From: Flectonema sp. DT1601
Taxonomy: Eukaryota
DNA length: 64,000 nucleotides
Direction: 5' to 3'
NCBI GenBank assembly: GCA_964019425.1
Contig: OZ025785.1
Span: forward strand, 992,001 to 1,056,000
Shown: one piece after another, positions 23,486 through 64,000 of the stretch
Position numbering within the stretch: position 1 is the first letter of the stretch
Layout: each line of letters begins with the position of its first letter
Notes under the pieces: model-generated
Database searches by the model: none
What the model was told of the DNA's origin: nothing
The model's input: the letters and a program-made list of their open reading frames with translations, nothing else
Program-made: the position numbers and the translations under genes

Positions 23486-23558
23486 GCCCCGTTGGCGCAA
23501 TGGATAGCGCGTTGGACTTCGAATCCAAAGGTTGCGGGTTCGAGTCCCGCACGGGGTT
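23486..23558 (+). tRNA. tRNA-Arg (TCG)
   Basis: GCCCCGT-TGGCGCAATGGATAGCGC-G-TTGGA-CTTCGAA-TCCAA-AGGTT-GCGGG-TTCGAGT-CCCGC-ACGGGGT-T; all stems pair; T-run downstream. Confidence 0.95.
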
Positions 23559-31119: not shown

Positions 31120-32869
31120 TTATTCCACTTTAGGTCTTTTTATTTCACTACTTTCTGGTTTTACTTTTCGAGGTCGCTTACATCCTCTGCTGTTATGGCC
31201 TTTGGTGTTGCAATTGCTGCATGTCACTGTTGACGTTTCACTCTTTTTCCTGATGCGGAGATGCGGACGGCGACCTACGCTCGGCTTCACAACAGGAGGC
31301 AAGGTATCATCAGGGATCAGGTCTCCAAGTTCCGCAGTTTCAGGTAGCACTTGCATGCTGTAGAAACGTCTGAAACTCTCGACACGCAAGAAAGGCAGAC
31401 AGGCAGCGGGATCAGTCAAGGTGTCCAAACCAAGGTGCATTAGTACCTTCGTTGTGTGTGCACAAGGAAGGTTGCTCTTACGGAAGTCGTAGCAATTACA
31501 TGTCAAACAACCATCAATCAATCGAACTGTTTTGCTCGCTAGGGACTGTCGTAGCTCCCACAACCGCTTGCTCAGTTGTGTTACTTCCCACAGCGAAGCG
31601 TCTGCTGCCTGCTCCCGTATATGCTTTTCCACAGAGGGTACTGGGGATTCTGGCTGTAGAGTTGCAGCAAGCAGACCCTGTCGCTTAGCGAGCGTGTCTG
31701 TAGTCCATCTGCGGGTGTCCTGGATGAGAGTCAGCAGGCTTCCCTTGCGAGCTTCCCGAAAAATCGAATTAACGCACTCAACTGCGTTGGAGGTGTAGGT
31801 ATTAAACCTTGGAACACCTTTTGGCCAGTACGCATCTGACCACCGAGAAAGCTGTGTTTTCTTGATGTAAACGGTGGCGGTTTTACTGACAATGCTGTTC
31901 AACAGCTTCACGGCTTCCTTCTGCGACTTGGCTTTGGCTATCTGCCACATTATGGTGGAAGCGGAACCCTTTGGCAGCTGGGTGCTATTCGCAACGTTGT
32001 CAACAAGGTAGTTGAGACAGCAGGCATGGTGGAGAATTTTGTTTTCAAGGGTGGTGTCGCCTTCCAATCCCTTTTGTCTGTCTGAGAACAAGACTGCCCT
32101 CTCCAGCGACTTGCCGAAGTGAGCAGCCATCTGAGAATGGTGGTATGCCCACCCGTCCTTGTTCTCCGACACATTGCTTGTTGAGAAACACAAAGGGAAA
32201 ATGTGTCTCTCAGCATCCATCCCAACCGTGATGTACAGGGTACCACGGAATGCGCCTGACAGGTGGCAAGCGTCGCTGTGGATTATCGGAGAGAGAGTCG
32301 GAAATGCCCTACCATCCAAAAAACACCAAAACGCTCTTGTGAAGGTGCTTTGTGTCTTGACTATGTCGTATGACATTGCAGGGTTGACGGATTTCAAATT
32401 CTGCAGAAAAGCAGCTATCAACCCGAATTGATCACCCTGACTGCCAAGAACCTTCTGGCGTGTGTTCCTTAGCGCCTTGGTGATGATGTGTGTCGAGACA
32501 TCGACGGAACCGAAAGTTGTAAGATCTTTGGCAACTTCGCTCGGATAAAGCATAGGCTTTTGTCCTAACCTTCTGCTCTACCCGGTTGGCTACGAACTTG
32601 CATAACCCGTAGGTTACTTGCTTCGCTGCTCCAGGTGAACAAGTGTGCTCTTCCACATGCCACACACGACAGTTCCCTTGGTCCATCTTTGTTTTTACTG
32701 CCCACTGGCAGGCATCCACCGGACATGTAAAATTCATGTACGTCCGGTCCCTTTTTCCCCTTGCGAAACTGTGCCCACTCTGGTGGGAAATCTCCAGCAG
32801 GTGTATCTCAAACTTTTCCCTAGTGTCAAACACTTGTCCAACAGAAAGACTCTGAACAGGGACAGGCAT
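31120..32869 (-). mobile_element. Mutator/MULE transposase gene split by one frameshift near 32550
   Basis: ORF 32432-32869 gives a MuDR-type N-terminal domain (VGQVFDTRE...CPVDACQWAV). ORF 31120-32553 gives the DDE core (HSDACHL, FSDRQKGL, SNAVE), SWIM finger (CNC...LPCAH) and CCHC knuckle (CSNCNTKGHNSRGC). No TIRs identified. Confidence 0.88.
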
Positions 32870-33084: not shown

Positions 33085-33980
33085 CCCTTTAAGTTGCCCA
33101 TGACTATCCCATGTTTTCAGCCAAAAATTAAAATCCCTAAAACTATTTCCATCGAAAATGATTCAGTAGGGTCACCTATCCCAGATTTGGGTGCTCCTGA
33201 GTCTTCTTCGAGCGATGAAAAGAGTACAATAGAGCCAAGCATTTCCCCTCTGAAATGGAGCAAGAAAATCACCAAGGTAAAACGACACACGTTTCGGCGG
33301 TCCTTGCAGAACATGTCAGACCTGAAATTGATGAAGGAACTGCAGAAATTTGAACTTGTGTTCACCCTAAAGGTGATGAGATGATTTCGCACTGCAGCAA
33401 CAACTAGGCACTCAATCTTAACTTAGGACTCAATATCCTCGTGAGTCTCTGTGATAAGCCAAATATCTCAGATTACAGGAACGGTATATCAGACCCAGCG
33501 TACACACCCCACTTCGCTTCCTGAGATCGGTTCCTCTAAATTCGAACCAATCTAAAGTTTTACACTGTCACCAACCCCGTACCTGCTGACAAGCTCTACA
33601 AAATCCGCAGCTTTTGGGAAACAATAGTTCCCAAATGGTCCGAGATCAATAAGGCGGAGGCGCAGGGACGGGTGGAGAAGTTCTCTGCCTCGTACTTTCA
33701 GTCCTAGCACAATGTGCATCACATAAATTCAGGGGCAATCCAAAAGAAGTACATGTCTTCAGCACATTGCCTCTCGAGGAGAATTATGAGACAGCCACGT
33801 GATGGACTAAAATAAGGAAATCTATCAAAAAGTGACCATCGACTTACCGGTACAGATCCATCAGTACAACAAACTGATGGGTGGTGTTGACCTTGTAGAC
33901 GGTATCAGGGGGAAGGCAAGAAGAACTCTGATGACAAAACGCTGCACCCTGAAAGTCTTTCACTGCTTGTTAGAGATTTC
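33085..33980 (+). pseudogene. piggyBac transposon remnant (left terminus plus decayed transposase)
   Basis: TTAA|CCCTTT at 33081. Translations include S*DRFL*IRTNLKF...DKLYKIRSFW (about 33520-33620) and PVQIHQYNKLMGGVDLVD...LKVFHCLLEISI (about 33845-33980), which are piggyBac transposase motifs. In-frame stops and internal deletion present. Confidence 0.85.
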
Positions 33981-34575
33981 TATCTTCCGACACTCTCGCC
34001 GCGCCCACCCAGCACAGCACGATAGCCAGCTGCGTATCTCCGTCTACCTCCTTTCGCAACGCACCCAGCACCTGCTCCCCCACCGCAGGTATCGCCTGTT
34101 TCTGCGGTCGCTCTCTTCAGAGCTCTCATGTAGTCGATCAGCATCTGACCTCCAACACTTGATGCTCCCGTCCGTCGCAGCGCCGCTTGGGCTCGCCCCA
34201 CGTACTCGAGCGCTGAGGAATTTGAAATCGGACCCTTGGTCCGAGACCTTTGCCTTTCTACCCAGTAGATGATGGCTAGGTCCCACGACAACAATACTCC
34301 TGTTGCCTCGTGCCAGTTGTTCCGGAACTGGACCAAACGTCGTTGAGCTGCCTCCAGAGACCGCCTCCTCGAATTCGACAGCGCATCCCCCACCACCCGC
34401 AACGCCGATTTTGTCAGTGACACTGCACTCTTCTTCGTCACCGCACCTTCCCGTGTCCTCGGCCGTCCAACATCCTTCACCGAGAGCACGCCTAACCCTT
34501 CTAACATGGAGGTCAGTGGCGACTCTTCGTTGCGGGGTTCCTCTGTGGCTGTGTCTTCTCTGCTTCCCTTTCTTC
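33980..34575 (-). pseudogene. Truncated tyrosine recombinase of a TATE/DIRS-like retrotransposon
   Basis: GC-rich. SSALEYVGRAQAALRR...LIDYMRALKR, then after a frameshift RPQKQAIPAVGEQV...AIVLCWVGAARVSE, containing the first catalytic Arg motif (AARxxE/D). Truncated at the piggyBac junction. Confidence 0.72.
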
Positions 34576-34774
34576 CCTGGTCAAGACGCTAAACTGATTG
34601 TTTTTTTTTTTTTTTTTTTCTTAAAATAATTAAAAGGATTTAAAAAAAAAAAAAAAAAAATAAAAAAATAAACAATGTTATCATTGTTTTTTTTCTATCG
34701 ATCGACTATGTCGATTAATTTCTATTTTCCGTCCTGATCGAGACGCTAAACTGATTGTTTCCTTTTTTTAAATA

Positions 34775-34806
<32 letters not shown>

Positions 34807-34810
<4 letters not shown>

Positions 34811-35208
34811 ATCTCCCTGCTATCCTCATATCCCCACAATAATATTATACCTTTTCATTTTCTCTTTCCTTTTCTGGTCTTTTTTTTTCTTTTTTTCCTT
34901 TTTCATACAACGTTTTTTATTTATATTTATATTTTATTTCTTTTTTTTTTTTTCATGTTTGATTATTTCCTCTTCATATTTTTTTTCTATTCTTTCTTTT
35001 TTTTTTTTTTTTTTTTCTCTACCTCTCTCTTAATTCTGTTCGTTTCTTTGAAACGAAAATTCATTTGAATATTATTCCTTGGTCAGCAACCATCATTGTC
35101 GCCCTTTGGGCCTGTTAAAAAAAAAAAAAAAATAAAAAGAAAGTTTACATCGGGAATAGGGCAGGAGCCAAAAGCTCCCAGTCCGTTACTTCCCACTTTA
35201 TCGAAATT
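34807..35208. repeat. Block Z; other copies at about 50371-50631, 55017-55423 and 56211-56402
   Basis: Shared core ...TTCTGTTCGTTTCTTTGAAACG...GGGAATAGGGCAGGAGCCAAAAGCTCCCAGTCCGTTACTTCCCACTTTATCGAAATT. Confidence 0.93.
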
Positions 35209-36235
35209 CAACCCCACATAGCCCGCAGAAAAGGCGGGACGGCGGGCATCCTCCATCTCCTGCGCGGTCGTCCAGCGGCCTCCCGTCACCCCCTCTCTCA
35301 GCACTTCCAGACGAGCCACGTTCGCCTTCGCTAAGTCGGCCAGCAGCCGTTCCGCGTCCTCCAGGCTTTCGACAGCCGGTAATCTCGACATCAGCATGCC
35401 GAGCTCTCTTAGGCGCGCCTGCGCTTCGTGTGCCTGTGGTCGGGGGTTCGTTCCTGCCTTCGCTTCCAGCAGTTCTCTGCACGTCCGCCCCTCCGCCCCA
35501 CCAAGCATCTACGTCGATGGAGGACAATCCTCCCATCAACAGACCCATCTCCGGCTGTGCGTCGTCGCCTCCCCCGCCACCGGTAGCCGGGGGGCCTTCG
35601 TTTCCCGCAACCAGGCGACGTAACTGCGCCTCCAACTCTGCCTTCTCAGTCTCTTCTCGTACCCTCTGCCGTAAGTTAGCCAGCTCTCCTGAGTTTGCGT
35701 AGGAAGATGAGACGGGGTTGGGCACCAAAGTAGCCTTCGTAGGTGATAACTTTGCCATCCGTTTTTCCAGCTCGAGCTGGGCCTGCAGCGCAGACACTTC
35801 CGCGTGGTGTCGTGCCTCCAGCTTGGCCTTCGCCTCCGCTTCGTTCACCAGGATTCCGGCCTGGTTCCGTGCCGCGTCCACATCCCTCCCTTGGGCTTGC
35901 GTTACCGCCAAACCGGCTTGGGCCCGCACCGCGTCCACCTCCCTCCCTGCTTGTGCTTGCGTTACCGCTGCGCCGGCTTGGGCCCAAGCTGAGTCGCAAC
36001 CAGCTTGCGCATGCATGATCGCTTGAGCCGCCATGGACTGCGTGGCAGCTATTGCAGAGTTCCCCTCTGCTACCAGAGCCCTCCGGTCTCCGGCCGCTAC
36101 CACCTCCGTGGCCATCGCCTGCGTCTCCGCGGAGTGCGCTGCCATTGCAGCTTGGGCAACGAACGTTGGTGTTGCTTGTCCTCTTCCGGCCCCTGGAGTG
36201 AGGGCTACGACGGTGTTTGGGTCGACGCCAGACAT
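35209..36235 (-). pseudogene. GC-rich Ala/Gln-rich coiled-coil ORF, probable first (gag-like) ORF of the same YR retroelement; frameshift near 35510
   Basis: Same strand and similar GC content as the YR fragment, separated from it only by an AT-rich inserted block (34576-35208). Internal AQAG repeats. Function is inferred from position only. Confidence 0.45.
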
Positions 36236-36734
36236 TTTTGTTGATCGCAGCTAGTTTTACTGGCGCACAGGGAAAATAGATAACATGACATAATAAATAA
36301 CGGCTCTTAATCTGAATAGTTTGCTTTTCTGGGATAATCCCTGCCAGAGGGGCGAGTATTCTCTATCTGTTCTGATCTGTTACTTCATTTGTCTTGTTTA
36401 ACTTCAGTTATATGCATTTTACTTTTTATTGTTTCCCATCTACTTTTTATTTTCTATTAGTTCTGGTCAGAAACTCCTGGGCAGCAAGAAGGAAAGTAGT
36501 TAAGTACTTCTGGGTGTTTGGCATCACCCCCCATAGTGAGCAAGTACAACAGGTAGCATTGGTAGTCTGTTGATCCTGAGTGATCCCAGCTACAGTTTTG
36601 TTTTTCTTTCTTTTTTTTAGAAGAAGATCAGGACATCCAAGCACTGCTGGATAGTTGCTGAATGCAGGGCCTGCCTGTGGCATTATAATAACAGGCTAAG
36701 TCATTTGTAGTTCATAGTTTACCTTTGATTTTAT

Positions 36735-39700: not shown

Positions 39701-40428
39701 GTCAAGACGCTAAACTGATTGTTTTTTTTCAAAATTAATAAAAAAGAATACAAAAAAAAATAAAAAAAAAAGAATAAACAATGTTATCATTGTTTTTTTT
39801 TATCGATCGTCTATGTCGATCACTTTCTATTTTCCGTCCTGGTCAAGACGCTAAACTGATTGTTTTTTTTTCAAAATTAATAAAAAAGAATATAAAAAAA
39901 AAATAAAAAAAAAAGAATAAACAATGTTATCATTGTTTTTTTTTATCGATCGTCTATGTCGATCACTTTCTATTTTCCGTCCTGGTCAAGACGCTAAACT
40001 GATTGTTTTTTTTCAAAATTAATAAAAAAGAATACAAAAAAAAATAAAAAAAAAAGAATAAACAATGTTATCATTGTTTTTTTTTATCGATCGTCTATGT
40101 CGATCACTTTCTATTTTCCGTCCTGGTCAAGACGCTAAACTGATTGTTTTTTTTCAAAATTAATAAAAAAGAATACAAAAAAAAATAAAAAAAAAAGAAT
40201 AAACAATGTTATCATTGTTTTTTTTTATCGATCGTCTATGTCGATCACTTTCTATTTTCCGTCCTGGTCAAGACGCTAAACTGATTGTTTTTTTTTCAAA
40301 ATTAATAAAAAAGAATATAAAAAAAAATAAAAAAAAAAGAATAAACAATGTTATCATTGTTTTTTTTTTTTATTGTTCGACTTTGTTGACTGGTCAAGAC
40401 GCTAAACTGATTGTTTTTTCTTTAAAAA
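36735..40428. repeat. AT-rich satellite array 1; monomers A (about 120 bp) and B (about 100 bp), often alternating
   Basis: A = GAATAAACAATGTTATCATTG(T)nATCGATCGACTATGTCGATYACTTTCTATTTTCCGTCCTGGTCAAGACGCTAAACTGATTG(T)nCAAAATTAAT(A)n... B has ATCGTTCGACTTTGTCGACTAAT and lacks the CCTGGTCAAGACGCTAAACTG segment. Confidence 0.97.
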
Positions 40429-40439
40429 GAAGATTTCAT

Positions 40440-43400
40440 TTGGAACTGAATGGAAGGACATCGACGTTTCTGCTGCAGAAAAACTTCAAACTTTCTCCGT
40501 CGAAACAGAAAACTCTTCAAAACCTGCCGACCAACTTGATAAACTACTCAAAACGGTTTATCAAATATGTAGCGGTTTCTTTGAAGAAACAAAGCGGAAT
40601 TTACCCCGCAAACAGAAATCAAGGGAAGAGGTCATCCTCGACCAAGAAAAACTTGAATGTCGTCTGGAAATGAAACAGCTAAGACAGGAGCTCCGCAAAT
40701 CTGGGCCTTCTATAGAGAACGCTGTCAAATGGAAAGAGGCAAGAACGAGAATGAAAAGGATTTTCCGAATGTATCGGAATTTAGAAAAGAAAAATCTATT
40801 CAAAAAATTACAAGATAAATTTCGTCAAAATCCGTTTTCTGCCATAAAAGAAGAACTCCAAAAAGAAGATCCTCAACCCCCCTCCCTTGATATTCCAGAG
40901 GAAAAAATAATTGAACATTTTAGAAACAATTATTGTGACAATGAAAAAAAAAAAACTGATTTCACCCATCCCTCTTTTTTACCTAAGTCTGACTACAAGA
41001 CAATGGATGATATCCAGTTCCCGAGCTTCGAACAGTTTGGTATTCTCTTATCAAAGAAAAAAAACAAATGTGCCCCTGGTCCCAATTGCATACCTTATGT
41101 TGTATGGAAAAAGGTCCCAACTTTTATGGAAGCACTTTACAAGGTATTAAAGAGAATTTTCGAACTCAAGGCCTATCCGGATAGTTGGGGCTTAGCATTT
41201 GTAACAATGCTCCCAAAGCCCAACTCCGATGGGAAAGACATCTCGAAAACGAGACCGATAGCTGTGGGCAACTGCGACGGGAAAATTTTTAATACGGTTA
41301 TTCAGGAAGCCGTCGCAAACCACACTCTTTCTAAATTTAATTTTCAAAAAGGCTTTAGGAAAGGTGTCTCTGGGTGTATCGAACATGCCACGATCACCTC
41401 AGAGATTTTTAAAGAAGTGAAAGCTCTCCGGAAAAACCTAACAATTGTCTGGGTGGATTTGGCAGATGCTTTCGGCTCAGTCAAACATCAATTAATTTTC
41501 TTTGCTTTAAAATATTTCGGAATTCACGAAAGAATAATCGGTTTCTATAAAAGGTATTATTCCTCCATGCGCGTCCAAATCAGAGTTGGAGAAGGCCTGA
41601 CGCCCACTATCCCTTTTGAAGTTGGTGTCTTTCAAGGCTGCGTTTCCTCCCCAACCCTTTTTAATTTGGTATTCCAACTACTGCTCTTTTCCTTAGCAGT
41701 TCATCAACAGGAAGCCTACGAGTTTAACAATAAATCCCTCCAACTATTAGTTGCAGCTTTTGCTGATGATTTACAACTTACCACGTCATCAAAGGCGGGG
41801 GCAAAATTGCTAATCAAGTCGCTCGAACAGTTTCTTTCCTGGTCTCGTGGTATGAAAGCGAAACCCCAGAAATGCATTGCCCACAGCTTTGTACAAGGGA
41901 AACCAGCTAACCCGGACCTGAAGATTAACAATGTTCCGATTACGAATCTCCAGGAAGCTGGAGAGTTCAAATACCTCGGGCGTTGGTTTGAGCCGAACGC
42001 CAAAGAACAGAAATTGCGAGAGCGCCTGACCACTTTTACCAGGAATTTTTTAAAAAAAGTCGACGCCATGCCACTATATGGGTCTCAGAAGGCTTGGTCT
42101 GTCCAACACTTGTTATTGTCAAGGTTAACATGGAGTTTAATGATCCATGACTTATCTCTCCCTTTTGCCAAAAAAATGGACAAAATTATTAAACCTTTTT
42201 TGAAGAAATGGTGGGGATTTGTCCGCTCTGCGAACACAGTCATCCTTTTTACCGGTTCAAAGAACACTGTTGGTCTCAGACACAAAAGAGTTGAGACGCT
42301 ATATAAACAAGCGCAATCAATTAAACTAGACATCCACAGATCCTCACAGGACTCTGACATGCACGGTGTCTACAATGTTATTATGGAGAAATCGTCCAAC
42401 TGGTCGAAAAAGTTTTCAGCTTCTGCTGAGTGGGAGCGCCTTATTAAGTTTTTTTCTTACCGTTCTCTTGCGAAGCAATCAGCTGGTCTTGGTCACCGAT
42501 TGCGCGATCTACGTACTACTCGCCCCGATCTCCTTAAGCGTTTTGAAGTGGAAGCCACAGATGAACTACTGAACTCTTTGAATAAATTACAAGTCCAAGG
42601 TCAGTGGAAGGAGTGGTCTAAATGTATGATAAACGATTTCACCTGGAATAAGGTACTTAGGGAGGGAAATCCTGCCTATATCTCATTTCAACTGAAAGCG
42701 GTTACAAACACCCTCCCCTCACAAGATAATTTAAAGAGGTGGAACATCACCAATGTGGACCAAAATTGTGTTTTGTGTGGCAAAGTGAATCCTACCCTCA
42801 GGCATGTCTTAACAGGCTGTCCTGTCTCTTTAACACAAGGGAGGTTCACGTGGCGTCACGACAGCGTTCTAAAACGCATTGTTATCTTCTTGGAAGAGTT
42901 GATAATAAAAGCCAACAAAAGAAAAGAAAACCTCCCGCCTCCCTCTCAAACTTTTTTAAAAACAGGGGAAAATAAACCCCTAGAAAGAATTTCTAAAGAG
43001 ACAGGCGAACTTTCACTAGCGAATGATTGGGTCATCCTCGACGATGTCGGTGATAACCGCCTAATTGTTCCTCTTGAAGTGTGCCATGTCTCGTCCTCTC
43101 TAAGACCAGACATTTTTATTTATTCTTTTTTTGCGAAAAGAGCACTGATTCTGGAGCTGACGTGTCCAAATGAAGATCGTTTCGAAACCTCTCATGTCTT
43201 AAAGGAAAAGAAATACCTAAAGCTAAGAGACTCGATCATCGCTAATGGCTTCGACTGTAACATTTTTACTATTGAAGTTGGCGTACGAGGAAACATCTGC
43301 ATGGACCAGCTGAACATCTGGACACGTCACATCGGTTCACCTTTAGCACCAACAAAAGCTTTATTTTGTGAATGCACCAGAATCGCCAGACAGTGCTCAT

Positions 43401-45468
43401 ATGTTCTGTTCCAGACGAGGAACCTCCCCACGTGGCATTCAAGACCACTAATGCGCAGCATTAAAGAAGAACCTGCCACTGCAAGTTTTATAAAAGATGG
43501 TAAAGAAATCTTCCCTGTGGAAGAAGTCAAAATCCACAAAGTAACAAAACTGAAAACGATCGAAAAGCTCACCATTGAAAGATCGTGGCTTGAGAAATGT
43601 TTTATCTGGCAAACTTGTTACGCATCGGCTCTTTCTATTCTACTTATTGCCAATGGTTCTTCCTCCCCGGCCCCTTCTGTTTTGTTAGATGAGGATGAGC
43701 TCACTGGACTCTCCTTGTCATTCTCTTCTATTTCTTCCATCTCTTTCCAGACTCCCCCACCTGAACTCATGTCAACGGGATCGCAAACACTTCCTGCTGA
43801 TTTCGCTATAGTGATAAGAACTCAATCTGACATGGGTTCTCAAACCCCCTTGTACAAAAAAAAAGAAGGAAAATTAAGGCTGAAACTTTCCTTGAAATGC
43901 CAGATTTTAGAAAACGAATTAGAGCAAATGAAAGAACGAATTTTTTATGTTCTATTTTTATTTTACTTTAATGCGATGTCAGCCTCCCTCGAGAAAGACA
44001 AGCAGTTACTAAATGGATTACCTGTTGAGATCAAAGCTACCAACCAGGATCCATCCTCACTTCCTCCTGCGCCCCCTGTTTTAATTATTGAAAAAGATAG
44101 AAAAGAATATGAACTTCTGGAAGGAGTAATTCAACGGTTAACAGCAGAACGCGATGAATCGAAGACTTCTCTTTCTGCACTAGTTCGACAATATGACTTA
44201 GTGGAAGATTACAGGAAACGTGAGCTCGCAAATCTGACTCAGAGAGCAGACCTATCGGAAATGGCGCTCTTTAATTACCATCAAAGGTTTGTTCTTCTGT
44301 CGAACGAATTGGAGACCAAATGTAATGAGGAAAGAGAAAGTAAAATAAGACTTTTCTATACTCAACAGGAGGTCGAGAGTTTGCGTGCCGCGCGTCCCCG
44401 TATGACCCACTTTAGTCAACAAGTTTCCCCCCGAACCCCCGTTCTGTATGAATCTGTTGCTATGATGAAGATAGCAAAGAACTACCTCTCGCTCTTTACA
44501 ACTACGAGTAGTCTTTTTACTCCTCTTATTAAACCCCTTATCCCTACCCTTAATTATATCACCCCTCTTTGTCCTCTAGCCTCAATTCCTCCGACAATGC
44601 CGCAGAGTGAAGCTCTCGACCGCACGCCGACCAAGATTTTACGACAAGAGAGTCACGTTATCTCCGTTAAAGAGAATACACCTATTGCGAGACAATGGTC
44701 CGAGGGTAGGATTGACTTACTCGAGAATTACTGTCGAGCAGTAGATGACTCTCTCGAAACAAACGAGAAAGCGGCAGAGCTCTCAGAACAACTTCTGGAT
44801 GCCCAACTTCGCCTCTCGGAGCTGAATCACCAACGGTGTACAACTCACGCAGAGCAGCTTGAGCAATCCATGATGTTAACGGGACTGGCGAGCGATTTAA
44901 ATGCTCAACTCGCCTTGGCACGGTCTCAAATTGCGGCCCTGAAGTTCCAATTAGCTTCATGGGCAGAAGGTTTGAGTCCGCCAGACACAGAAGAACATGA
45001 GGAAAATGAAACTCCGCCGAGAAAGTCTGAGCGTTCAACTCTGAAAAAACGAACCCCTCCATCAAGATATCGTTACAATCGAAGGAGATGTTCTGCTGAT
45101 GACGTTCACGGTGACTCCACCCCCTTGTAATTCTCTTTTTCCTTACTTTCACATCACTTTGTTTATTTAGTTTTTTAGCTTATTTATTATTTATTGTTCG
45201 TTTTTGTTTGTATTATTTTATCGATATGTTTATGTCCGTCAGATCATAACGTTAATCTGGTTAATTGTTAATTGTTAATTATAAATGGTCTAAACCCCAA
45301 TCCAAGTTCCCAAGGCTTGGCATAGATTTGAGTGACGCCTTACTGGCCTCCTCATCCTCTATGAGTGGTGAGGGGGCCAGCAATGGTTTTTTTTTTTTTT
45401 TTTCTCTTATTTCTTTTTTTCTTTTTCTTTTACTCTAATATGAAATATTTTTGAACAAAATGTGATTA

Positions 45469-45499
<31 letters not shown>
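40440..45499 (+). mobile_element. 5'-truncated non-LTR retrotransposon of RLE type (HERO-clade-like) with 3' UTR and poly(A)
   Basis: The frame is open from the satellite junction (GTEWKDID...) to the stop at 45130, followed by about 345 nt of UTR and an A-run at 45476-45499. No clear target-site duplication. Confidence 0.85.
40670..45130 (+). CDS. RT + CCHC zinc knuckle + restriction-like endonuclease polyprotein with about 560-aa C-terminal extension
   Basis: RT motifs APGPNCIPY, TRPIA, QKGF, WVDLADAFGSV, GVFQGCVSSP, FADD (41759-41770), KYLG. Also CVLC..LRHVLTGC..SLTQGRFTWRHDSVL (HERO-like) and RLE RPD..ILELTCP..KEKKY..IEVGVRG. Confidence 0.93.
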   Translation: MKQLRQELRKSGPSIENAVKWKEARTRMKRIFRMYRNLEKKNLFKKLQDKFRQNPFSAIKEELQKEDPQPPSLDIPEEKIIEHFRNNYCDNEKKKTDFTHPSFLPKSDYKTMDDIQFPSFEQFGILLSKKKNKCAPGPNCIPYVVWKKVPTFMEALYKVLKRIFELKAYPDSWGLAFVTMLPKPNSDGKDISKTRPIAVGNCDGKIFNTVIQEAVANHTLSKFNFQKGFRKGVSGCIEHATITSEIFKEVKALRKNLTIVWVDLADAFGSVKHQLIFFALKYFGIHERIIGFYKRYYSSMRVQIRVGEGLTPTIPFEVGVFQGCVSSPTLFNLVFQLLLFSLAVHQQEAYEFNNKSLQLLVAAFADDLQLTTSSKAGAKLLIKSLEQFLSWSRGMKAKPQKCIAHSFVQGKPANPDLKINNVPITNLQEAGEFKYLGRWFEPNAKEQKLRERLTTFTRNFLKKVDAMPLYGSQKAWSVQHLLLSRLTWSLMIHDLSLPFAKKMDKIIKPFLKKWWGFVRSANTVILFTGSKNTVGLRHKRVETLYKQAQSIKLDIHRSSQDSDMHGVYNVIMEKSSNWSKKFSASAEWERLIKFFSYRSLAKQSAGLGHRLRDLRTTRPDLLKRFEVEATDELLNSLNKLQVQGQWKEWSKCMINDFTWNKVLREGNPAYISFQLKAVTNTLPSQDNLKRWNITNVDQNCVLCGKVNPTLRHVLTGCPVSLTQGRFTWRHDSVLKRIVIFLEELIIKANKRKENLPPPSQTFLKTGENKPLERISKETGELSLANDWVILDDVGDNRLIVPLEVCHVSSSLRPDIFIYSFFAKRALILELTCPNEDRFETSHVLKEKKYLKLRDSIIANGFDCNIFTIEVGVRGNICMDQLNIWTRHIGSPLAPTKALFCECTRIARQCSYVLFQTRNLPTWHSRPLMRSIKEEPATASFIKDGKEIFPVEEVKIHKVTKLKTIEKLTIERSWLEKCFIWQTCYASALSILLIANGSSSPAPSVLLDEDELTGLSLSFSSISSISFQTPPPELMSTGSQTLPADFAIVIRTQSDMGSQTPLYKKKEGKLRLKLSLKCQILENELEQMKERIFYVLFLFYFNAMSASLEKDKQLLNGLPVEIKATNQDPSSLPPAPPVLIIEKDRKEYELLEGVIQRLTAERDESKTSLSALVRQYDLVEDYRKRELANLTQRADLSEMALFNYHQRFVLLSNELETKCNEERESKIRLFYTQQEVESLRAARPRMTHFSQQVSPRTPVLYESVAMMKIAKNYLSLFTTTSSLFTPLIKPLIPTLNYITPLCPLASIPPTMPQSEALDRTPTKILRQESHVISVKENTPIARQWSEGRIDLLENYCRAVDDSLETNEKAAELSEQLLDAQLRLSELNHQRCTTHAEQLEQSMMLTGLASDLNAQLALARSQIAALKFQLASWAEGLSPPDTEEHEENETPPRKSERSTLKKRTPPSRYRYNRRRCSADDVHGDSTPL

Positions 45500-45503
<4 letters not shown>

Positions 45504-45621
45504 AATGAATAATAAAAAAAAAAAAAAAAAAACATGCCTTGGGAATACAACCAAAGCCCCAATTAATCGGTCCTTTCTTTTTTCCTTCTTGTCAAGTGAT
45601 CGCTCCACTCGTCGATCACCA

Positions 45622-50632: not shown

Positions 50633-53600
50633 TTAGAAACTAGGAAACTAGGTTAACACTTAGTTAAAATTAAGACCGGTTAGTCAGTTTAAGGTCTTGT
50701 CTAGGACCAACATTCTTGTTTAACTTCAGTTATATTCATTTTACTTTTTATTGTTTCCCATCTGTTTTTATTTTCTATTAGTTCTGGTCAGAAACCCCTG
50801 GGCAGCAAGAAGGAAAACAGTTTAGTACTTCTGGGTGTTTGGCATCACCCCCCATAGTGAGCAAGTACAACAGGTAGCATTGGTAGTCTGTTGATCCTGA
50901 GTGATCCCAGCTACAGTTTTGTTTTTCTTTCTTTTTTTTAGAAGAAGATCAGGACATCCAAGCACTGCTGGATAGTTGCTGAATGCAGGGCCTGCCTGTG
51001 GCATTATAATAACAGGCTAAGTCATTTGTAGTTCATAGTTTACCTTTGATTTTATAACTTCACACAGGGTACTATGAACGATGAGAGATCCAGTGGGATC
51101 ACTCAGGGTCTAGTAGAGACCACCAATGTTGTGCGTTGATAGGCAAGGTGACCAACCTTGACATTCTTTCTTTTCTCTCCTGTTGTGACAAACACAAAAT
51201 ACACACACAGCTTACAGTGTGTTCTTTGTGTATGTTTTCTTCAGGTGTGAGTAGTTTTTTTGTTCTTGCTCTTCAGGGAGGGCCTTAGCCAAAAGCTAAC
51301 AGTCCAAATCTCACCTGGAAATTCAACTCATTAAAAGGTTAAAAAAAAAAAAAAAAAAAAAAAAAGATTAATCAATGTTATCATTGTTTTTTAATCGATC
51401 GACTATGTCGATCACTTTCAATTTTCCGTCCTGGTCAGGACGCTAAACTGATTGTTTTTTCTTTAAAAATAAATAAAAAGAATAAAAAAAAAAAAAAAAA
51501 AGGAATAAACAATGTTATCATTGTTTTTATTTTATCGATCGACTATGTCGATTACTTTCTATTTTCCGTCCTGGTCAAGACGCTAAACTGATTGTTTTTT
51601 CTTTAAAAAATAATAAGAAGGATTTAAAAAAAAAAAAAAAAAAAAAAAAAGAATAAACAATGTTATCATTGTTTTTTTATCGATCGACTATGTCGATCAC
51701 TTTCTATTTTTCGTCCTGGTCAGGACGCTAAACTGATTGTTTTTTCTTTAAAAATAATAAAGAATTTCGATAAGAAGGATTTAAAAAAAAAAAAAAAAAA
51801 AAAGAATAAACAATGTTATCATTGTTTTTTTTTATCGATCGACTATGTCGATCACTTTCTATTTTCCGTCCTGGTCAAGACGCTAAACTGATTGTTTTTT
51901 TTCAAAATTAATAAAAAAGAATACAAAAAAAAATAAAAAAAAAAGAATAAACAATGTTATCATTGTTTTTTTTTATCGATCGTCTATGTCGATCACTTTC
52001 TATTTTCCGTCCTGGTCAAGACGCTAAACTGATTGTTTTTTTTCAAAATTAATAAAAAAGAATACAAAAAAAAATAAAAAAAAAAGAATAAACAATGTTA
52101 TCATTGTTTTTTTTTATCGATCGTCTATGTCGATCACTTTCTATTTTCCGTCCTGGTCAAGACGCTAAACTGATTGTTTTTTTTTCAAAATTAATAAAAA
52201 AGAATATAAAAAAAAATAAAAAAAAAAGAATAAACAATGTTATCATTGTTTTTTTTTTTTATTGTTCGACTTTGTTGACTGGTCAAGACGCTAAACTGAT
52301 TGTTTTTTCTTTAAAAAGAAGATTTCATATTAGAAACTAGGAAACTAGGTTAACACTTAGTTAAAATTAAGACCGGTTAGTCAGTTTAAGGTCTTGTCTA
52401 GGACCAACATTCTTGTTTAACTTCAGTTATATTCATTTTACTTTTTATTGTTTCCCATCTGTTTTTATTTTCTATTAGTTCTGGTCAGAAACCCCTGGGC
52501 AGCAAGAAGGAAAACAGTTTAGTACTTCTGGGTGTTTGGCATCACCCCCCATAGTGAGCAAGTACAACAGGTAGCATTGGTAGTCTGTTGATCCTGAGTG
52601 ATCCCAGCTACAGTTTTGTTTTTCTTTCTTTTTTTTAGAAGAAGATCAGGACATCCAAGCACTGCTGGATAGTTGCTGAATGCAGGGCCTGCCTGTGGCA
52701 TTATAATAACAGGCTAAGTCATTTGTAGTTCATAGTTTACCTTTGATTTTATAACTTCACACAGGGTACTATGAACGATGAGAGATCCAGTGGGATCACT
52801 CAGGGTCTAGTAGAGACCACCAATGTTGTGCGTTGATAGGCAAGGTGACCAACCTTGACATTCTTTCTTTTCTCTCCTGTTGTGACAAACACAAAATACA
52901 CACACAGCTTACAGTGTGTTCTTTGTGTATGTTTTCTTCAGGTGTGAGTAGTTTTTTTGTTCTTGCTCTTCAGGGAGGGCCTTAGCCAAAAGCTAACAGT
53001 CCAAATCTCACCTGGAAATTCAACTCAGTCCTTGTCAGTTTTGGCATCAAACTTGTAATGGTTTAATCATTACAGGTTATTTACTGAAATATTTGTTCTA
53101 AAAGTTGCTAAGTATTTCTCACTTAGAAATTTTTTATTTTTTTATTTTCAGCTTAATTAGCTACAAATTGTTTCTACTAAGTGTTTCTCGCTTAGTTTTT
53201 TTTTTTTGCTTTTCAGCTCCTTAAAAGCTGCTAAGTGTTTCTGCTAAGTGTTTCTCACTTAGAATTTTATTTTTATGTTCGTTTTCTATCCCTTCTCCTA
53301 TCCCTTTTGTTCAAAATAAGCGGGAGGAAATTCTCTCATTCACGCTAAGATGCACTCTGAACTTTGATTTTTTGATCTGAGTGTGAGGGAATGACCTGTT
53401 AGTGCATTGGGCATAGGCTGGGCTGCAGTTTAGATGTCTTAGGTGTTAATAGGGGGTTCCTCTTAGCATTTTTCTTTGTTCCCACCTTATGATTTTCTTG
53501 AAGAAAAAAAATAGAAGTCATAATGGTGCTTCCCTCTGGAAGGGTTGTAAGCCATGGTGTCCAACTAAATTAAAGGACAAGTCTGGGATAATCCCTGCCA

Positions 53601-57950: not shown

Positions 57951-58150
57951 NNNNNNNNNNNNNNNNNNNNNNNNNNNNNNNNNNNNNNNNNNNNNNNNNN
58001 NNNNNNNNNNNNNNNNNNNNNNNNNNNNNNNNNNNNNNNNNNNNNNNNNNNNNNNNNNNNNNNNNNNNNNNNNNNNNNNNNNNNNNNNNNNNNNNNNNNN
58101 NNNNNNNNNNNNNNNNNNNNNNNNNNNNNNNNNNNNNNNNNNNNNNNNNN
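57951..58150. other. Assembly gap (200 N)
   Basis: Run of N; true size and adjacency of the flanks are unknown. Confidence 1.
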
Positions 58151-61100
58151 TTTCCCCGATTGCACTTGAAGTCTATGGAGGTTTAGGCCCACAAGCTGTG
58201 AGGACCCTGAGCCGACTGTCGCAGCTGCGAGCCATTGCCACAACAGTACCCCTACGGGAGGTTGCAGGCCTGTATGCCAGGAGGGTCTCAACCCAAGTGG
58301 TGGTCTGCACTGCAGAAGCCCTCAGGGCAAGAGGAGCATCGCTCATACACCAGGCAGCGTTATCCGCTAGTAAGCCGCACACGCCACACATGCCGCCTGC
58401 ACCGAGCACATCCGATGACGTGTCATTGTCCGCATCGACCCCACAACCTATGGATCCAACTCCAGACCCAACCACACCGGATGCCGGAGGGATCGGCCGG
58501 TCAGCGGAACCCGAGGGGGATACAGTTACCAGGCCGGCCACGAAGCCAGAGGAACCCGCAACGAGTCTAGTAACTCCACAACACAAAGCTGGAGTGCCGA
58601 GGGAGTTCGAATCGACACCAGTGCCGGCCCCGCAACCGACCACGACTGACGACGGAGGACCCGTTCCGATAGCTACATCGGTGTCCGTTCCAGCCGCTAC
58701 CCTGTCAACCGAAGGACGGAACGAGACCGCATCGTTTGATCCAACTACCGCTGCCCCGACACCTCCTGGCCCAATCATATCTACCGCCGGAGGTTTAGAG
58801 GTATCGGAGCCTGTGCTGAGTCCTTCGACTAGTCCGCAAGGGGTGTCCGCCGAACCCACTATGAGCCTCACAACTCCACTACACAAAGCCGGAGAGCCGA
58901 GAGAGCTCGAACCAGTGCCGGCGCAGGCCCCGTTACCGACCACGACTGACGATGGAGGATCCGACCCGACAGCCACACCAGTGTCCGCACCGATGGCACC
59001 CTTACCAGCTGGAGGGAGAAACGAGAAAACATCGACTGAACCAGTCACCGCTGCCCCGACCCCTCCTGGCCCAACCATATCCATCGCCGGAGGTTTAGGG
59101 ATATCGGAGCCTGTGCCGAGTCCGTCGACTAGTCCGCAAGGATTGCCCGCAGAACCCGCTACGAGTGTCGCAATTCCACTACACAAAAACGGAGAGCCGT
59201 GTGAGTACGAATCAACACCAGTGCCGACCCCGTTACCGTACACGACTGACGACGGAGGACCCGACCCGACAGCCACACCAGTGTCCGCTCCGACGGCTTC
59301 CTTACCAGCTGGAGGGAGAAACGAGAAAACATCGACTGAACCAGCCACCGCTGCCCCGACCCCTCCTGGCCCAACCATATCCATCGCCGGAGGTTTAGGG
59401 ATATCGGAGCCTTTGCCGAGTCCGTCGACTAGTCCGCAAAGATTGCCCGCAGAACCCGCTACGAGTGCCGCAATTCCACTACACAAAGACGGAGAGCCGT
59501 GTGAGTACGAATCAACACCAGTGCCGACCCCGTTACCGTACACGACTGACGACGGAGGACCCGATCCGACAGCCACACCAGTGTCCGCTCCAGCTGCCTC
59601 CTTGCCAGCCGTCGGACCGAACGAGTTCACGTTGCACGTTCCAGCCACCGCTGCCCCGACCCCTCCTGGCCCAACCACATCCATCGCCGGAGGTTTAGAG
59701 GTATCGGAGCCCGGGCTGAGACTGCCACTCAACAGACCTCTAGAAGCGCCGGTTGATCCGGCATCAGCTGTAGACGTAACTTCCTCGCCAGCCGCTAAAC
59801 GAACCGAGACGGATCAGACCGCTCCAGTCACCGCTGTCCCTACTCCTCCGGGCCCAACCAGATCCATTGCCGGAAGTTTAGAGTTACCGGAGCCGGAGCC
59901 GAGACCGTCTTTTCGCCCGCAAGGAGCGCCGGTTGAACCCACAATGGAAACAGGCAATCCTTCACTGCCAATAGGCGGACGGAATGTATTCATATTGATC
60001 GACCCAGCCGCTGCTGTCCCTATGCCCCCTGGCCCTTCCAAATCCACTGCCGGAGGTTTAGAGATATCGGAGACCGGGCTGAGGCCGCATGAATCGCCCA
60101 CTGATCCAATCGCTACGCACGGTGGAGAGATAACGCCGAACGAAGCCGCCCTGTCTGTTCCAGACTCTGCCGTCATGCACCTTCCTGGCCCAATAACAAC
60201 TTCTGACGGACGATGGCAGGAACCGGAGTCGGTCCCGGGTACGCCCTTGACACAGAGAGGGCCGTCACTCACTTCGAAACCCGAGAGTCCAGCAATAGAA
60301 CACCCTCCGACCTTCATACCCTTTGGAGTAGGCCTGGAGGGGATTCAGAATCTCGGGGATTCCTGCTACATGAACGCAGCGCTGCAGTGCCTATGCAAGG
60401 GCATGCCTCTTCCGGAATGCAACAAATTGCCGGAACACTCAGCAGACTGTGTCTTATGCACCCTGAGGGAGCTGAAGCGATCGGGGTCTGTTTTGGCAGC
60501 GAAGAAGATATGGGAATGGATGAAACCACGCTGCGGTCCGGGACAATCAGAAGCCGAACATGCACTGTCAGAGCTGCTCGAAGCAATCGTTGAGGCGGGA
60601 GCTCCACCAGTCGACTTCGTGTCCACGGTAACGCAAATCCGCACGTGTCAAGTCTGCGAAGACATACACACGGTACGGTATAGAACGCCCATCCTCAGAC
60701 TGGAACCAGACCAAAAGACAGCTTCTGCCCTTGACGAAACGACGACAAGCCCGACAGACTTCACCTGCCCGAGTTGTAAATCGTGCTCAGCGGAGATCGT
60801 TACATCGGTAGACGAGCCAGCCCGTTCGCTGTTCCTTGGGTTCAAAGAGGGACATTTCGGAGATACCAAACCCGATGAAGTCACCCTTCCAGAATCCTTC
60901 ATAGACGCATCGAGCCGCCTCTACACCCTGACTGGAATGATCCAACACGTCAGATTAAACGAGGTCTCGGGGCACTATGTGTCGTATACGACAAATGGAA
61001 GGGGGGGATGGCTGAAACAAGACGATTCTGCCGAGGGAATCTACACGTCGAAGGTCACACAAGTAAAGCCCTGCGTCGCCCTGTACCTGAGACGAGAGCA

Positions 61101-63321
61101 GCTACCCTCCTCCACCCAGGATCCAAGACGGATTTTAGCACCCTCCAACAGGAAGCCATCTTTCTTCTACGGAGTCGCCGAAGGCAGATCCCCGGGAGTC
61201 TATACCACGTGGGAGGAAACGAAGAGGGAGGTGCACAAATACAGAGGCGCCGTCCACCAAAGATTCGTCCTCCGCGAGTCGGCCCAGCGATTTGTCGAGA
61301 GGTACAACCCACCATCAGGGGATACCAAAGTCGCTCCACCGCCGGGCAGCAAATGGTACGCAGTAGTCAGGGGCCGAAAGTCCGGTCTGTACGACTGCTG
61401 GCGCGAAGCGAGCTCGATGGTAAACGAGTTCACCAGAAGCCGGTACAAGGCCTTCAACTCGCGATTGGAAGCCTCTCTATACTGGTGGGACCACATGGCA
61501 GGGGGACCTCAACAGGACTCGCCTCGCATGTGCCTATTCTTTGCCAGTCATAGGAACTTGAACACTGGGAGGACGGGGGCGGCCGCCTGCCTGTTGGACA
61601 CGCAACTGCACAAGTTGACGGCCAGCTGGGGTGCGACGCTCGACACTGCAGACCTCGGGCTAGCCTCCTACTATGCTGCCCTCAAGGGGATACAGAAGAT
61701 GAGTCAACAGGATAGAAATGCCACCTGGAGTTGCAGAGGAAATATGAACACGTGGAGTGCGACAACACGGACGGGACTGGCGGGGGCTGTGCCGGACACA
61801 TGGAGCTTCCTCAACACACCAAACGTCGCCAACAACTGTGCGCAGTTCAAGGCGGAAGAGGTGTCCTCTCGAGATTACTGCTCGCTGATGGACGTGTTGA
61901 GACGTACCTCAGAACTGGAAGGGGAGCTGGGATTACGGTTAACCAAGAAACCGAGATCCCCAGATTCCGATTCGCAGGGAGAGTCTGCCTCGGTCAAAAA
62001 ACCAAAGGCTGAGGCAGACCATCCACCGCCCGCCATAGCCGACCCCGTTAGAAGCCCAACGCCACCGGCCAGTCCGAGGAGCAAGAAGCAGTGGTCCCCT
62101 GGTTCAGATTCGCAAGACGAGCCTGTATCAGTGAAGAAGCCGAAGACGTCCGCACCTGAAGTGGCCCGAGAAGACTCAGTGACTTCAGAAGGCCCCCCAC
62201 TAGTAGATAACCAACGGAACCCGACGGTCACGACGGAGATAGAAAATGTAGCGCCGACCGCCTCACCTGTTGAAACTGCAGTTACAACCAATGTCGGCCA
62301 GAGTAAGCCGGAGCCAAAGGAAACCGACATCCCACCGCCGAATGCAAGTCAGGAATTGGAAGATGCCACGGCCAGCGCCACACCAGTCACTAGACCGACA
62401 GATTTGCCCACCGAAGGCAGTCCCCTGCCGTCAGCCAGTCTAAGGACGATAGTTGCAACCATAGACCCGCCGGAGAAAGGTGAACACGATGCCTCCGAAG
62501 ATACAGTAAACACCCTCAAGGAAGAAGTATATGATGCCCCTGGAGATCAGACAGACACCCTCACCGGGGAAGTACGCGATGCCTCCGAAGAACCAGCGGA
62601 TATTCTTACCGAAGTAGAACATGATGCCGCCGGAGAACTAGCAGACACCCTCGCCGAAGAAGTGCGCGATACCGCCGAACAACCAGCAGACATCCTTACC
62701 GAAATAGAACAGGATGCCTCCGGAGAACTAGCGGACGCCCTCGACAATGAAGTGTGTGACACCTCTGAAGAACCAGTAGACATCCTCACCAAGGAGGAAC
62801 GCGACTTGTCCAGCCCGTCATCGCAGTTACAAGCATACGACAAGGAGACCCACACTCCCCCTGTGGCCAGAACGCTAGACCTCGACAGCCATAACAGCTC
62901 TACAGAAGATCCGACACCGAAGACCAGAAGAGCAAGGAGCAGCCCACCCCGGACGGGGACAAGTAGCTCCGATGTCTCCACAAACGATACCGAAGATACC
63001 CGACCGACATGTGACCATGCACCGCCGTTGCAAAAGGGACCAAGGGTCAAATGCGACTTCTGCCATAGATTGTTGCAACGGAAATGGTTCAGGAGCAGAT
63101 GCACGAAGTGCCAGATAACGACCTGTCGAAGATGTTGGACCGCCGGAGTGGAGACCGCCTCCAGAGCCTTGGATCACCCAGACAGTACACCAAGACACAG
63201 GAGGACGAGGTCGTGCCCATCCTCGAACGAGAAGACAAAGAAGAAGATATCGCCATACAGTTCCGCGGACTCAGAGAAGACCAACCTGAGTCCGGGGAAG
63301 AGACTTAAAGACGACTGCTGA
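58151..63321 (+). CDS. C-terminal about 1720 aa of a probable RLE non-LTR retrotransposon polyprotein: RLE C-terminus, Pro/Thr repeats, USP (peptidase C19), 2x RNase H1 hybrid-binding domain, degenerate RNase H, acidic repeats, Cys finger
   Basis: xSPIALEVYGGLGPQAVRTLSRL...RRVS (RLE end); GIQNLGDSCYMNAALQCL and GHYVSY...WLKQDDS (USP); FYGVAEGRSPGVYTTWEE and WYAVVRGRKSGLYDCWRE (HBD); CDFC..CTKC..CRRC. No stop codons; the 5' part is lost in the gap. Confidence 0.85.
58540..59730 (+). repeat. Four 300-bp (100-aa) coding tandem repeats, followed by shorter diverged copies to about 60200
   Basis: Sequence lines at 58561, 58861, 59161 and 59461 align; repeated peptide PLHK.GEP.E.E...TTDDGG.DPTATPVS...AAPTPPGPT.S.AGGL. 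Confidence 0.95.
62482..62796 (+). repeat. Seven 45-bp (15-aa) acidic coding repeats
   Basis: EHDASEDTVNTLKEE / VYDAPGDQTDTLTGE / VRDASEEPADILTEV / EHDAAGELADTLAEE / VRDTAEQPADILTEI / EQDASGELADALDNE / VCDTSEEPVDILTKE. Confidence 0.9.
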
Positions 63322-63954
63322 GATCTGTGGGTGTACTCACACGTCCCCTCCCCCTCCTCCTCCCCCACCCCCCCCCTTTATACCCACCGGAATAGATAAT
63401 TTCTTTTAAAAGTGTCACTGTGAGACCTCAAAGAAAGCCGCACGTCCTCGGCAAAAAGAAGCCTGAGATGCTGACAAAAAGTCGATCTGTTAGTGAAACC
63501 TTGCCACTTAGCTTAGCTCTTCCAAAAACAACCAAGGCGGAACAAGATTGACTGCGTCGAAGGTGGAAACCGACAGCGTGCGAAGAAGAAAAAAGTAAAA
63601 GACTTAGGTAAAGCATACAACAGGTTATTAGGGAATAACCGCCGTCACACGGAAGAGTGATGAGTAAACCAGGGGCAATAATTACAACTTGGTCCACCGG
63701 GCTGGTGACAATGTTCCAACGTAGCATGCTAGGGCTAAGACAAGAGATGCGCCTGACGCGGGTGGAGTAGAGTCTTGTTATATTTTGGAGAGCAACGTTT
63801 TCGAACTACCCACAATATACCCGTCAGGAGGCAACTTGTACTTGGCTTACAATTTTAAAGACTACCGGTTTTCTCAGATAGAATTCCAGCAGACAAAGAA
63901 AAGTAAAAGAACTGTACTAGCATGTGGTTTCTTCCCGGCATCTTCGCTTCGGCG

Positions 63955-64000
<46 letters not shown>

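Follow-up and report, generated by a model that had tools for sequence, protein, structure and literature searches.

Tandem hybrid-binding domains and a predicted RNase HI-like fold without catalytic acids in a CRE/SLACS-type non-LTR retrotransposon of Flectonema

Results

The element and its surroundings

The DNA analysed here, referred to as the window, is a stretch of 64,000 nucleotides from Flectonema sp. DT1601. At its end lies one copy of a CRE/SLACS-type non-LTR retrotransposon. A single uninterrupted ORF on the forward strand (58153-63321, stop codon 63319-63321) houses two hybrid-binding domains (HBDs) and the motifs downstream of them, all in frame. The features of this copy are as follows.

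57951-58150, no strand: assembly gap of 200 N, which conceals the OTU domain, the zinc fingers, the RT, most of the RLE domain and the 5' junction
58153-58338, forward: C-terminal end (last helices) of the RLE domain, with 64% identity to the corresponding end in P0004 and P0023
58360-60318, forward: Pro/Thr-rich linker of ~650 residues with internal repeats, from translation and BLAST self-matches
60334-61090, forward: USP/UCH (peptidase C19) deubiquitinase, Pfam PF00443, E 5.8e-10, above the cut-off
61162-61296, forward: HBD1, from PF01693, alignment to 1qhk and 6vrd, and a motif scan
61354-61488, forward: HBD2, from PF01693, alignment to 1qhk and 6vrd, and a motif scan
61525-61878, forward: predicted RNase HI-like fold without catalytic acids, from an AF2 model with structure searches and from residue alignment
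61960-63321, forward: low-complexity tail, acidic and Ser-Pro-rich, ending in the stop codon, from translation
63322-64000, forward: 3' UTR and poly(A) tail; the A-run (63955-64000, 46 A) is cut by the end of the window

The 5' end of the copy is located inside the gap and its 3' flank past the window end. The hidden domains are supplied by sister proteins (P0011, P0017, P0013, P0018 and P0009), which form an overlapping chain at 92-100% identity and extend the protein upstream through endonuclease and RT (YLDD, QGDPLGP) to an N-terminal OTU domain. Upstream of the RLE end, P0017 contains CCHC, PxD, FDVTIVN and ExxKxxKY together with the RT motif YLDD. The order of domains in this family (family 1) is OTU, zinc fingers, RT, RLE, Pro-rich repeats, USP, HBD, HBD, RNase HI-like fold and tail, followed by poly(A). 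Several features of CRE-type elements are there: a single ORF with RT (RVT_1 in element proteins, Pfam E 7e-17; the RT of the window copy itself falls in the gap), a C-terminal CCHC finger and an RLE, with motifs in P0017 and P0023. Some CRE elements likewise contain regions of internal repeats (PMC12278014). A protein with 99% identity to that of the window, P0003, represents a cluster of 22 members, of which 15 are among the matches listed. The tail includes a Cys-rich finger-like stretch (63010-63138), and the tails of sisters P0010 and P0016 give weak ZZ/B-box Pfam matches below the cut-off.

The catalytic residues of the USP are in place (Cys738, 60364-66; His941, 60973-75; Asp957, 61021-23; P0001 numbering). 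Together with the OTU domain, the element would thus encode two putative proteases with catalytic residues. The original prediction had placed the HBDs next to a deubiquitinase in the context of TPRT, and both parts of this setting are borne out, the first by the USP and the second by RT and RLE of the sister copies. OTU and USP deubiquitinases also flank RT and RLE in Diplonema papillatum proteins P0228, P0234 and P0238, all three with a SLACS annotation. A non-LTR element with two deubiquitinases was not found described in the literature searched.

Other repeats are found elsewhere in the window. In a second, unrelated RT element (40406-45130, forward; RVT_1, E 5e-26, and zf-RVT), the C-terminal part is RLE-like and accompanied by a long extension, and A-runs lie at 45476-45532. 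The frame of this element begins inside a 141-bp repeat array, with the junction near 40439. AT-rich tandem repeats with units of ~113-145 bp extend over 36735-57950, without a match in Rfam; they contain a 12-base core in 63 exact copies and are broken by other repeated blocks, for example a ~700-bp unit at 50633, 52330 and 53855. The 141-bp repeat upstream of our element was considered as its insertion target and rejected, as it matches no Rfam family and the gap separates it from the element. On the reverse strand, a 485-residue ORF (31120-32577) looks by eye like a Mutator-type transposase with a SWIM-like finger and a terminal CCHC, and GC-rich ORFs at 33980-36250 look by eye like parts of a DIRS/TATE-like element. 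The sole Rfam matches in the window are tRNA genes at 1473-1545 and 23486-23558, both on the forward strand.

A second family with two copies of the fold

A second family of elements (family 2) is represented by P0004, whose 35-member cluster includes the full-length 2,840-residue proteins P0023 and P0031. Its order is OTU, zinc fingers, RT, RLE, USP, X1, HBD, HBD, X2 and tail. Both X1 and X2 resemble the domain that follows the HBDs in the window (here fold X), with 25-27% identity and z of 8-14 against shuffles. Identity between the families amounts to 66% in RT, 60% in RLE, 53% in OTU, 48-50% in the HBDs and 33% in USP; their tails are unalignable (z 0.4).

A quick RT tree without curated CRE1, SLACS or CZAR references unites the two families (SH-aLRT 99) within a group (93) that holds SLACS-annotated proteins of D. 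papillatum. The latter are the nearest named relatives, with ~36% identity over RT and RLE. OTU, RT, RLE and USP are present in them, and neither HBDs nor fold X were found. Because these relatives do without the HBDs and the fold, the module appears to be dispensable for such elements; judged from the sequences, it would be either a later addition or a part lost in the D. papillatum line.

Protein and representative searches, of which the word-based ones scored ~8,000 candidates each, did not find the fold outside the two families, whose module carriers all come from ENA contigs, possibly of one assembly. No relatives were found in metagenome contigs, and three short contigs from two sequencing runs do not reach over the fold. 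Other combinations of domains were observed in P0214 (RT, SET and RNase H) and P0211 (PHD, OTU and RT).

Two hybrid-binding domains

Pfam PF01693 (RNase H1 N-terminal/Cauli_VI) matches two stretches of the protein with E 6.8e-26 and 90.7 bits against a cut-off of 21. The PDB sequence matches of these stretches are N-terminal domains of RNase H1 from yeast (1qhk, E 4e-7) and human (3bsu, E 6e-5). On these matches, the presence of two HBDs in the element protein is certain, and the tandem of RNase H1 domains named in the original prediction is what the profiles return. Tandem HBDs as such are ordinary among active RNase H1 proteins, in which they occur in 2 to 8 copies, and a plant RNH1 has an HBD too (10.1101/572842). 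Elsewhere, tandem HBDs are fused to helicases, either Pif1-like (P0149) or with a UvrD C-terminal part (P0072).

In human RNase H1, substitution W43A abolishes hybrid binding and either K59A or K60A lowers it about 10-fold (PMC6846478). The equivalent of Trp43 is retained in 4/4 HBDs of both families, and that of Lys59 in both copies of HBD2. In the window, HBD2 accordingly has Trp43 and Lys59 equivalents (Y-K-A), and HBD1 has the Trp43 equivalent with H-Q-R at the positions of Phe58-Lys59-Lys60. Position 59 of HBD1 is Gln in both families, and position 60 is R in family 1 and S in family 2. Because Gln replaces Lys59 in both families, HBD1 may bind weakly. The same Gln is found in 23 of 200 other HBD motifs.

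A predicted RNase HI-like fold

Sequence profiles do not connect the post-HBD domain to RNase H. There is no Pfam or NCBIfam RNase H match to it (PF00075/PF13456), hhalign against 26 RNase H domains gives a probability of 0.4%, a PDB sequence-profile search returns no RNase H among its matches, and tblastn of two of the folds against plasmids yields chance matches only (E 6-9). A single-sequence AlphaFold model of HBD-HBD-fold reached pLDDT 34 and was set aside.

The picture is different at the level of structure. An AF2 model of the fold was built from a 5-row alignment that contained element copies only and no RNase H rows (mean pLDDT 67, pTM 0.66; residues 71-100 below 50). Its three strands, long helix and C-terminal helices are superimposable on RNase HI. 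In Foldseek against PDB, the top rows are nearly all RNase HI with probability ~1.0, the best E being 1.8e-3 and none reaching E<=0.001; in a viral library, the best match is a pithovirus RNase H (E 5.4e-5). VIA-align gives Z 8.7 and rmsd 2.9 over 112 residues to LC11-RNase H1 (3u3g) and Z 8.4 to Halobacterium RNase H1 (4e19), values to be read with the warning of the tool that Z near 8 may reflect a common arrangement. In an unbiased VIA search over 48,161 chains, RNase H takes every one of ranks 1 to 12, and in a second look RNase H or RT-RNase H make up 50/50 among the matches listed. Features of the ESM Atlas also lead to RNase H clusters, with lead-level scores of 0.87 for fold X of the window and 0.90 for X1 of family 2.

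Because of these uniform top rows, the location after two HBDs and the survival of A-E-Y in X1, the modelled domain is very likely homologous to RNase H. The RNase H fold anticipated by the original prediction is therefore supported by structure (Foldseek, VIA) and not by sequence profiles, and the predicted model did not contradict it. The span given in that prediction, 61160-61760, does contain the HBDs and motifs in frame, but stops short of the fold end at ~61878 and of the helix with the fourth acidic position. Archaeal-type enzymes give the best Z (3u3g, 4e19), and E. coli RNase HI ties with them within 1 in the second look (8.6 vs 8.4). Archaeal-type enzymes are marked by Arg in place of His. 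The original prediction had noted by eye a likeness to RNase HI motifs (FDGAS.GNPG.AGAG, AEY.AL..GL and GDS).

Lost catalytic residues

The first and second Asp are essential in RNase HI. The first, which we take to be D10 of the E. coli and D145 of the human enzyme, corresponds to Ala12 (61543-45) in the window fold, provided that the first strand is gapless. In the joint alignment, the catalytic Glu is replaced by Ser53 (61666-68), and the region of the second Asp holds no acid, the position being about Asn 61741-43. The last Asp falls on Gln112 (61843-45) by structural offsets, within one residue; in an alternative register, it aligns with the invariant Glu116 (61855-57). These assignments combine sequence alignment with range offsets, in which residue 3 of the model meets residue 1 of the E. 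coli enzyme and residue 1 of the model meets residue 134 of the human one, and the strand of the second Asp lies in the low-confidence part of the model.

The replacements are uniform among copies. In family 1 (14 proteins examined), Ala and Ser occupy the first Asp and the Glu position in 11/11 proteins that cover them, the third position is Asn in 12/12 and the fourth Gln in 13/13. In family 2 (8 examined), the catalytic positions read S/E/P/L in X1 (5/5 covering proteins) and A/R/S/T in X2 (7/7). The set D-E-D-(H/R)-D of active RNase HI is found in none of the three folds. Decay restricted to one copy, in which case sisters should retain D-E-D, is ruled out by the same losses in the sister copies that cover these positions; the absence of three conserved acids, noted by eye for the window copy (A/S/N), thus extends to its family. 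Since the loss is fixed in both families, it probably predates their split, as far as these alignments tell. The catalytic Glu that X1 keeps within A-E-Y would be a relic and supports the homology. Inactive forms of RNase H appear in PDB titles as D10A and D210N.

Besides the acids, the fold lacks the T/S-N-N/Q motif that precedes the catalytic Glu in 5/8 of the active enzymes aligned. This motif contacts the RNA:DNA hybrid, and because the fold has lost it, we suggest that the HBDs rather than the fold would grip the hybrid. The original idea of a non-cleaving hybrid reader is hence supported in its first half, the acids being gone, and would in its second half be shifted from the fold to the HBDs as the likely reader. 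Tethering, shielding and targeting, the functions that the original prediction had considered, are all candidates, and dsRNA is bound by domains of the HBD type as well. Net charge is uninformative here because the values of the folds (+2, -9 and -5) overlap the range of active enzymes (-6 to +4). An active RNase H profile detects nothing in the six frames of the window or in 10 element proteins, and misses X as well.

Might the fold still be a nuclease, using non-canonical or shared acids such as Glu of the last helix, or in family 2 with its two folds complementing each other? A-E is invariant in the three folds and matches the last catalytic Asp in one register, and X1 retains the catalytic Glu. 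Nevertheless, the first and second Asp are missing from all three folds, the structural offsets place Gln112 and not Glu116 at the last Asp, and family 1 has only one fold. We consider residual cleavage very improbable.

Constraint on the module

Four older copies of family 1 show 1-2 differing positions among the 117 residues of the fold, compared to 6-10% in the tail. The corresponding Fisher p-values (0.003, 0.005, 0.03 and 0.08) are not independent because the older copies are related to each other. A pooled test of variable sites (4/117 vs 68/351), in which the count for the tail is too high owing to frameshifted run-offs of several copies, was discarded in favour of these per-copy tests. 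In P0034, fold and HBDs together changed at 3/226 residues and the tail at 20/203 (p 7e-5). The three folds remain alignable (z 8-14) despite 25-27% identity, which makes them the fastest-changing ordered domain, and the core motifs G-A-A-A, W-S/G, Y-x-A-A-L-x-G and A-E are retained in all of them across the two families. From these comparisons, we read that the HBDs are apparently under real constraint and fold X under a weaker one that acts at the level of the fold.

The same data can be read less favourably. A captured RNase H1 that was formerly of use may have lost its activity and persisted for no other reason than that a domain within a long polyprotein has to remain in frame and fold without harm, with HBDs that have at most weak general affinity for nucleic acids. 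The fast change of the fold and the combined loss of catalytic acids and T-N-N would be expected in such a vestige. In P0060, the most divergent copy of family 1, the C-terminal half of the fold is kept no better than the tail (42/64 vs 87/137) and so shows no extra conservation, P0017 drops out of frame directly after HBD2, and the related elements of D. papillatum manage without the module. It speaks against this that core motifs persist in three folds across families with unalignable tails, that family 2 keeps a duplicate fold, and that fold and HBDs change less than the tail, as in P0034. A mere vestige seems to us rather unlikely.

Discussion

A possible role of the module

We propose, tentatively and with a probability of roughly 0.4, that the module clamps the RNA:DNA hybrid made by the element's own RT during insertion and does not cut it. 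A whole RNase H1 (HBD-HBD-catalytic domain) would have been captured by an ancestor of these elements behind the USP; for this step, we point to the archaeal-type enzymes as the closest solved structures to the fold. Cutting would then have been lost before the two families split. Such a loss is plausible, as premature cleavage of the template may be harmful, and strand displacement or the host RNase H could be used instead. Because RNase H is not needed by some non-LTR RTs for displacing their RNA template (PMC5603734), cutting may well be dispensable. The retained HBDs would hold the protein on the RNA:cDNA hybrid, where they would compete with host RNase H1 and keep the USP near the insertion site. 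The dead fold would more likely be a structural spacer or a protein-contact surface than a reader.

A somewhat unlikely possibility is an activity directed against RNase H. A dead RNase H1 with twin HBDs would coat the RNA:cDNA intermediate or chosen R-loops, exclude host RNase H and park two deubiquitinases at the insertion site. The module would then be the natural counterpart of the dead RNase H1 that serves as a laboratory probe for R-loops.

The HBDs may also take part in the choice of the target. In this case, they would bind genomic R-loops, for instance at arrays of small-RNA genes or at tandem repeats with high transcription, and guide the endonuclease to them, and the USP would remodel the chromatin nearby. 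HBDs are specific for RNA:DNA hybrids (PMC6846478), repeats are the usual targets of RLE elements, and those of the CRE clade enter spliced-leader genes (PMC4640811, PMC12278014). The window copy itself is situated at the end of a repeat-rich region. On the other hand, targeting by RLE elements is usually the task of N-terminal zinc fingers, and these are present in both families. We find a targeting role of the HBDs improbable.

Another process to be considered is defence against the host. The HBDs would bind dsRNA and shield the element RNA from Dicer or recruit a host factor, alongside two deubiquitinases that counteract ubiquitin-based restriction. OTU and USP are indeed both present in the element, and the set of RNAi components encoded by D. 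papillatum is complete (PMC10161547). Caulimovirus P6/TAV has a dsRNA-binding domain that binds TOR (PMC5670102), and the title of a paper cited there says that a P6 motif binds duplex RNAs. Still, silencing suppression maps to P6 residues 80-110, outside the dsRNA-binding domain (PMC5670102). The HBDs studied here are immediately followed by an RNase H fold, an order also found in cellular RNase H1, and the 3' UTR of the window copy is not unusually structured, its predicted fold being no better than that of shuffles (z -0.08). Counter-defence by dsRNA binding is thus doubtful in our opinion, and we return to the clamp on the RNA:DNA hybrid as the preferred reading.

Relation to known systems

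Cellular RNase H1 shares with the module the order HBD-HBD-RNase H, the Trp and Lys of the HBDs and the fold (Z 8.4-8.7 to 3u3g and 4e19). In contrast to it, the module has a very short linker, no catalytic acids and no T-N-N, sits after a USP in the polyprotein of a retrotransposon, and has its fold duplicated in family 2. With the CRE clade (CRE1/2, SLACS, CZAR), the element has in common a single ORF, zinc fingers, RT, RLE, internal repeats and poly(A). No RNase H is listed for CRE elements in the description available (PMC12278014). The D. papillatum proteins annotated as "SLACS 132 kDa protein" (P0184, P0185, P0228 and P0238) have the common order OTU-RT-RLE-Pro-rich-USP but not the HBDs and the fold. 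According to the genome paper of D. papillatum, its elements await rigorous study (PMC10161547).

Capture of RNase H by an RLE element has a parallel in oomycete Utopia, which recently acquired an archaeal-type RNase H. There, the domain lies upstream of RT, is shown with D-E-D-H/R-D, and no HBD or deubiquitinase is mentioned with it in the relevant part of the source (PMC4640811). In the window element, the fold is dead, accompanied by HBDs and positioned far downstream of RT.

An RNase H fold that outlives its catalytic residues is likewise familiar. Prp8 has an RNase H domain in which the fold is retained and the catalytic residues are lost. The connection or tether domain of retroviruses and the LTR elements Tat, Chronos and Archon provide further cases (PMC5348765, PMC5603734). 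In these retroviral and LTR systems, the dead domain is the old one and is accompanied by an active RNase H of more recent capture (PMC5348765), whereas our element has a dead domain that is itself the captured one and keeps HBDs, with no active partner detected in the window or in 10 element proteins.

Ubiquitin/SUMO proteases are known from several transposons: OTU and Ulp1 in Ginger1, Ulp1 in NeSL/Utopia and Mutator, OTU in Helitrons, and a peptidase C19 on a Trichomonas transposase (PMC2836005, PMC4640811). OTU and Ulp1 do not occur together in Ginger1, which has one or the other, unlike the window element with two classes of deubiquitinases (OTU and USP) in one non-LTR protein. There is therefore a precedent for each part: tandem HBDs, deubiquitinases on transposons, the capture of an RNase H, and an RNase H fold that is dead. 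In the literature searched, mostly open-access papers and not Repbase, we found no CRE element with HBDs, with a dead RNase H, or with OTU and USP together.

Taken together, the feature is real, conserved and narrow in its known distribution. RLE elements are under development for gene insertion, and for such work it would be of practical interest to have a natural add-on by which the RNA:cDNA intermediate is held or protected. The repeated capture of RNase H by non-LTR elements has been called enigmatic, the host enzyme being usable (PMC5348765). Because the captured enzyme was kept here after the loss of cutting, and no active partner was found, our data suggest that hybrid binding rather than cleavage can be the selected function.
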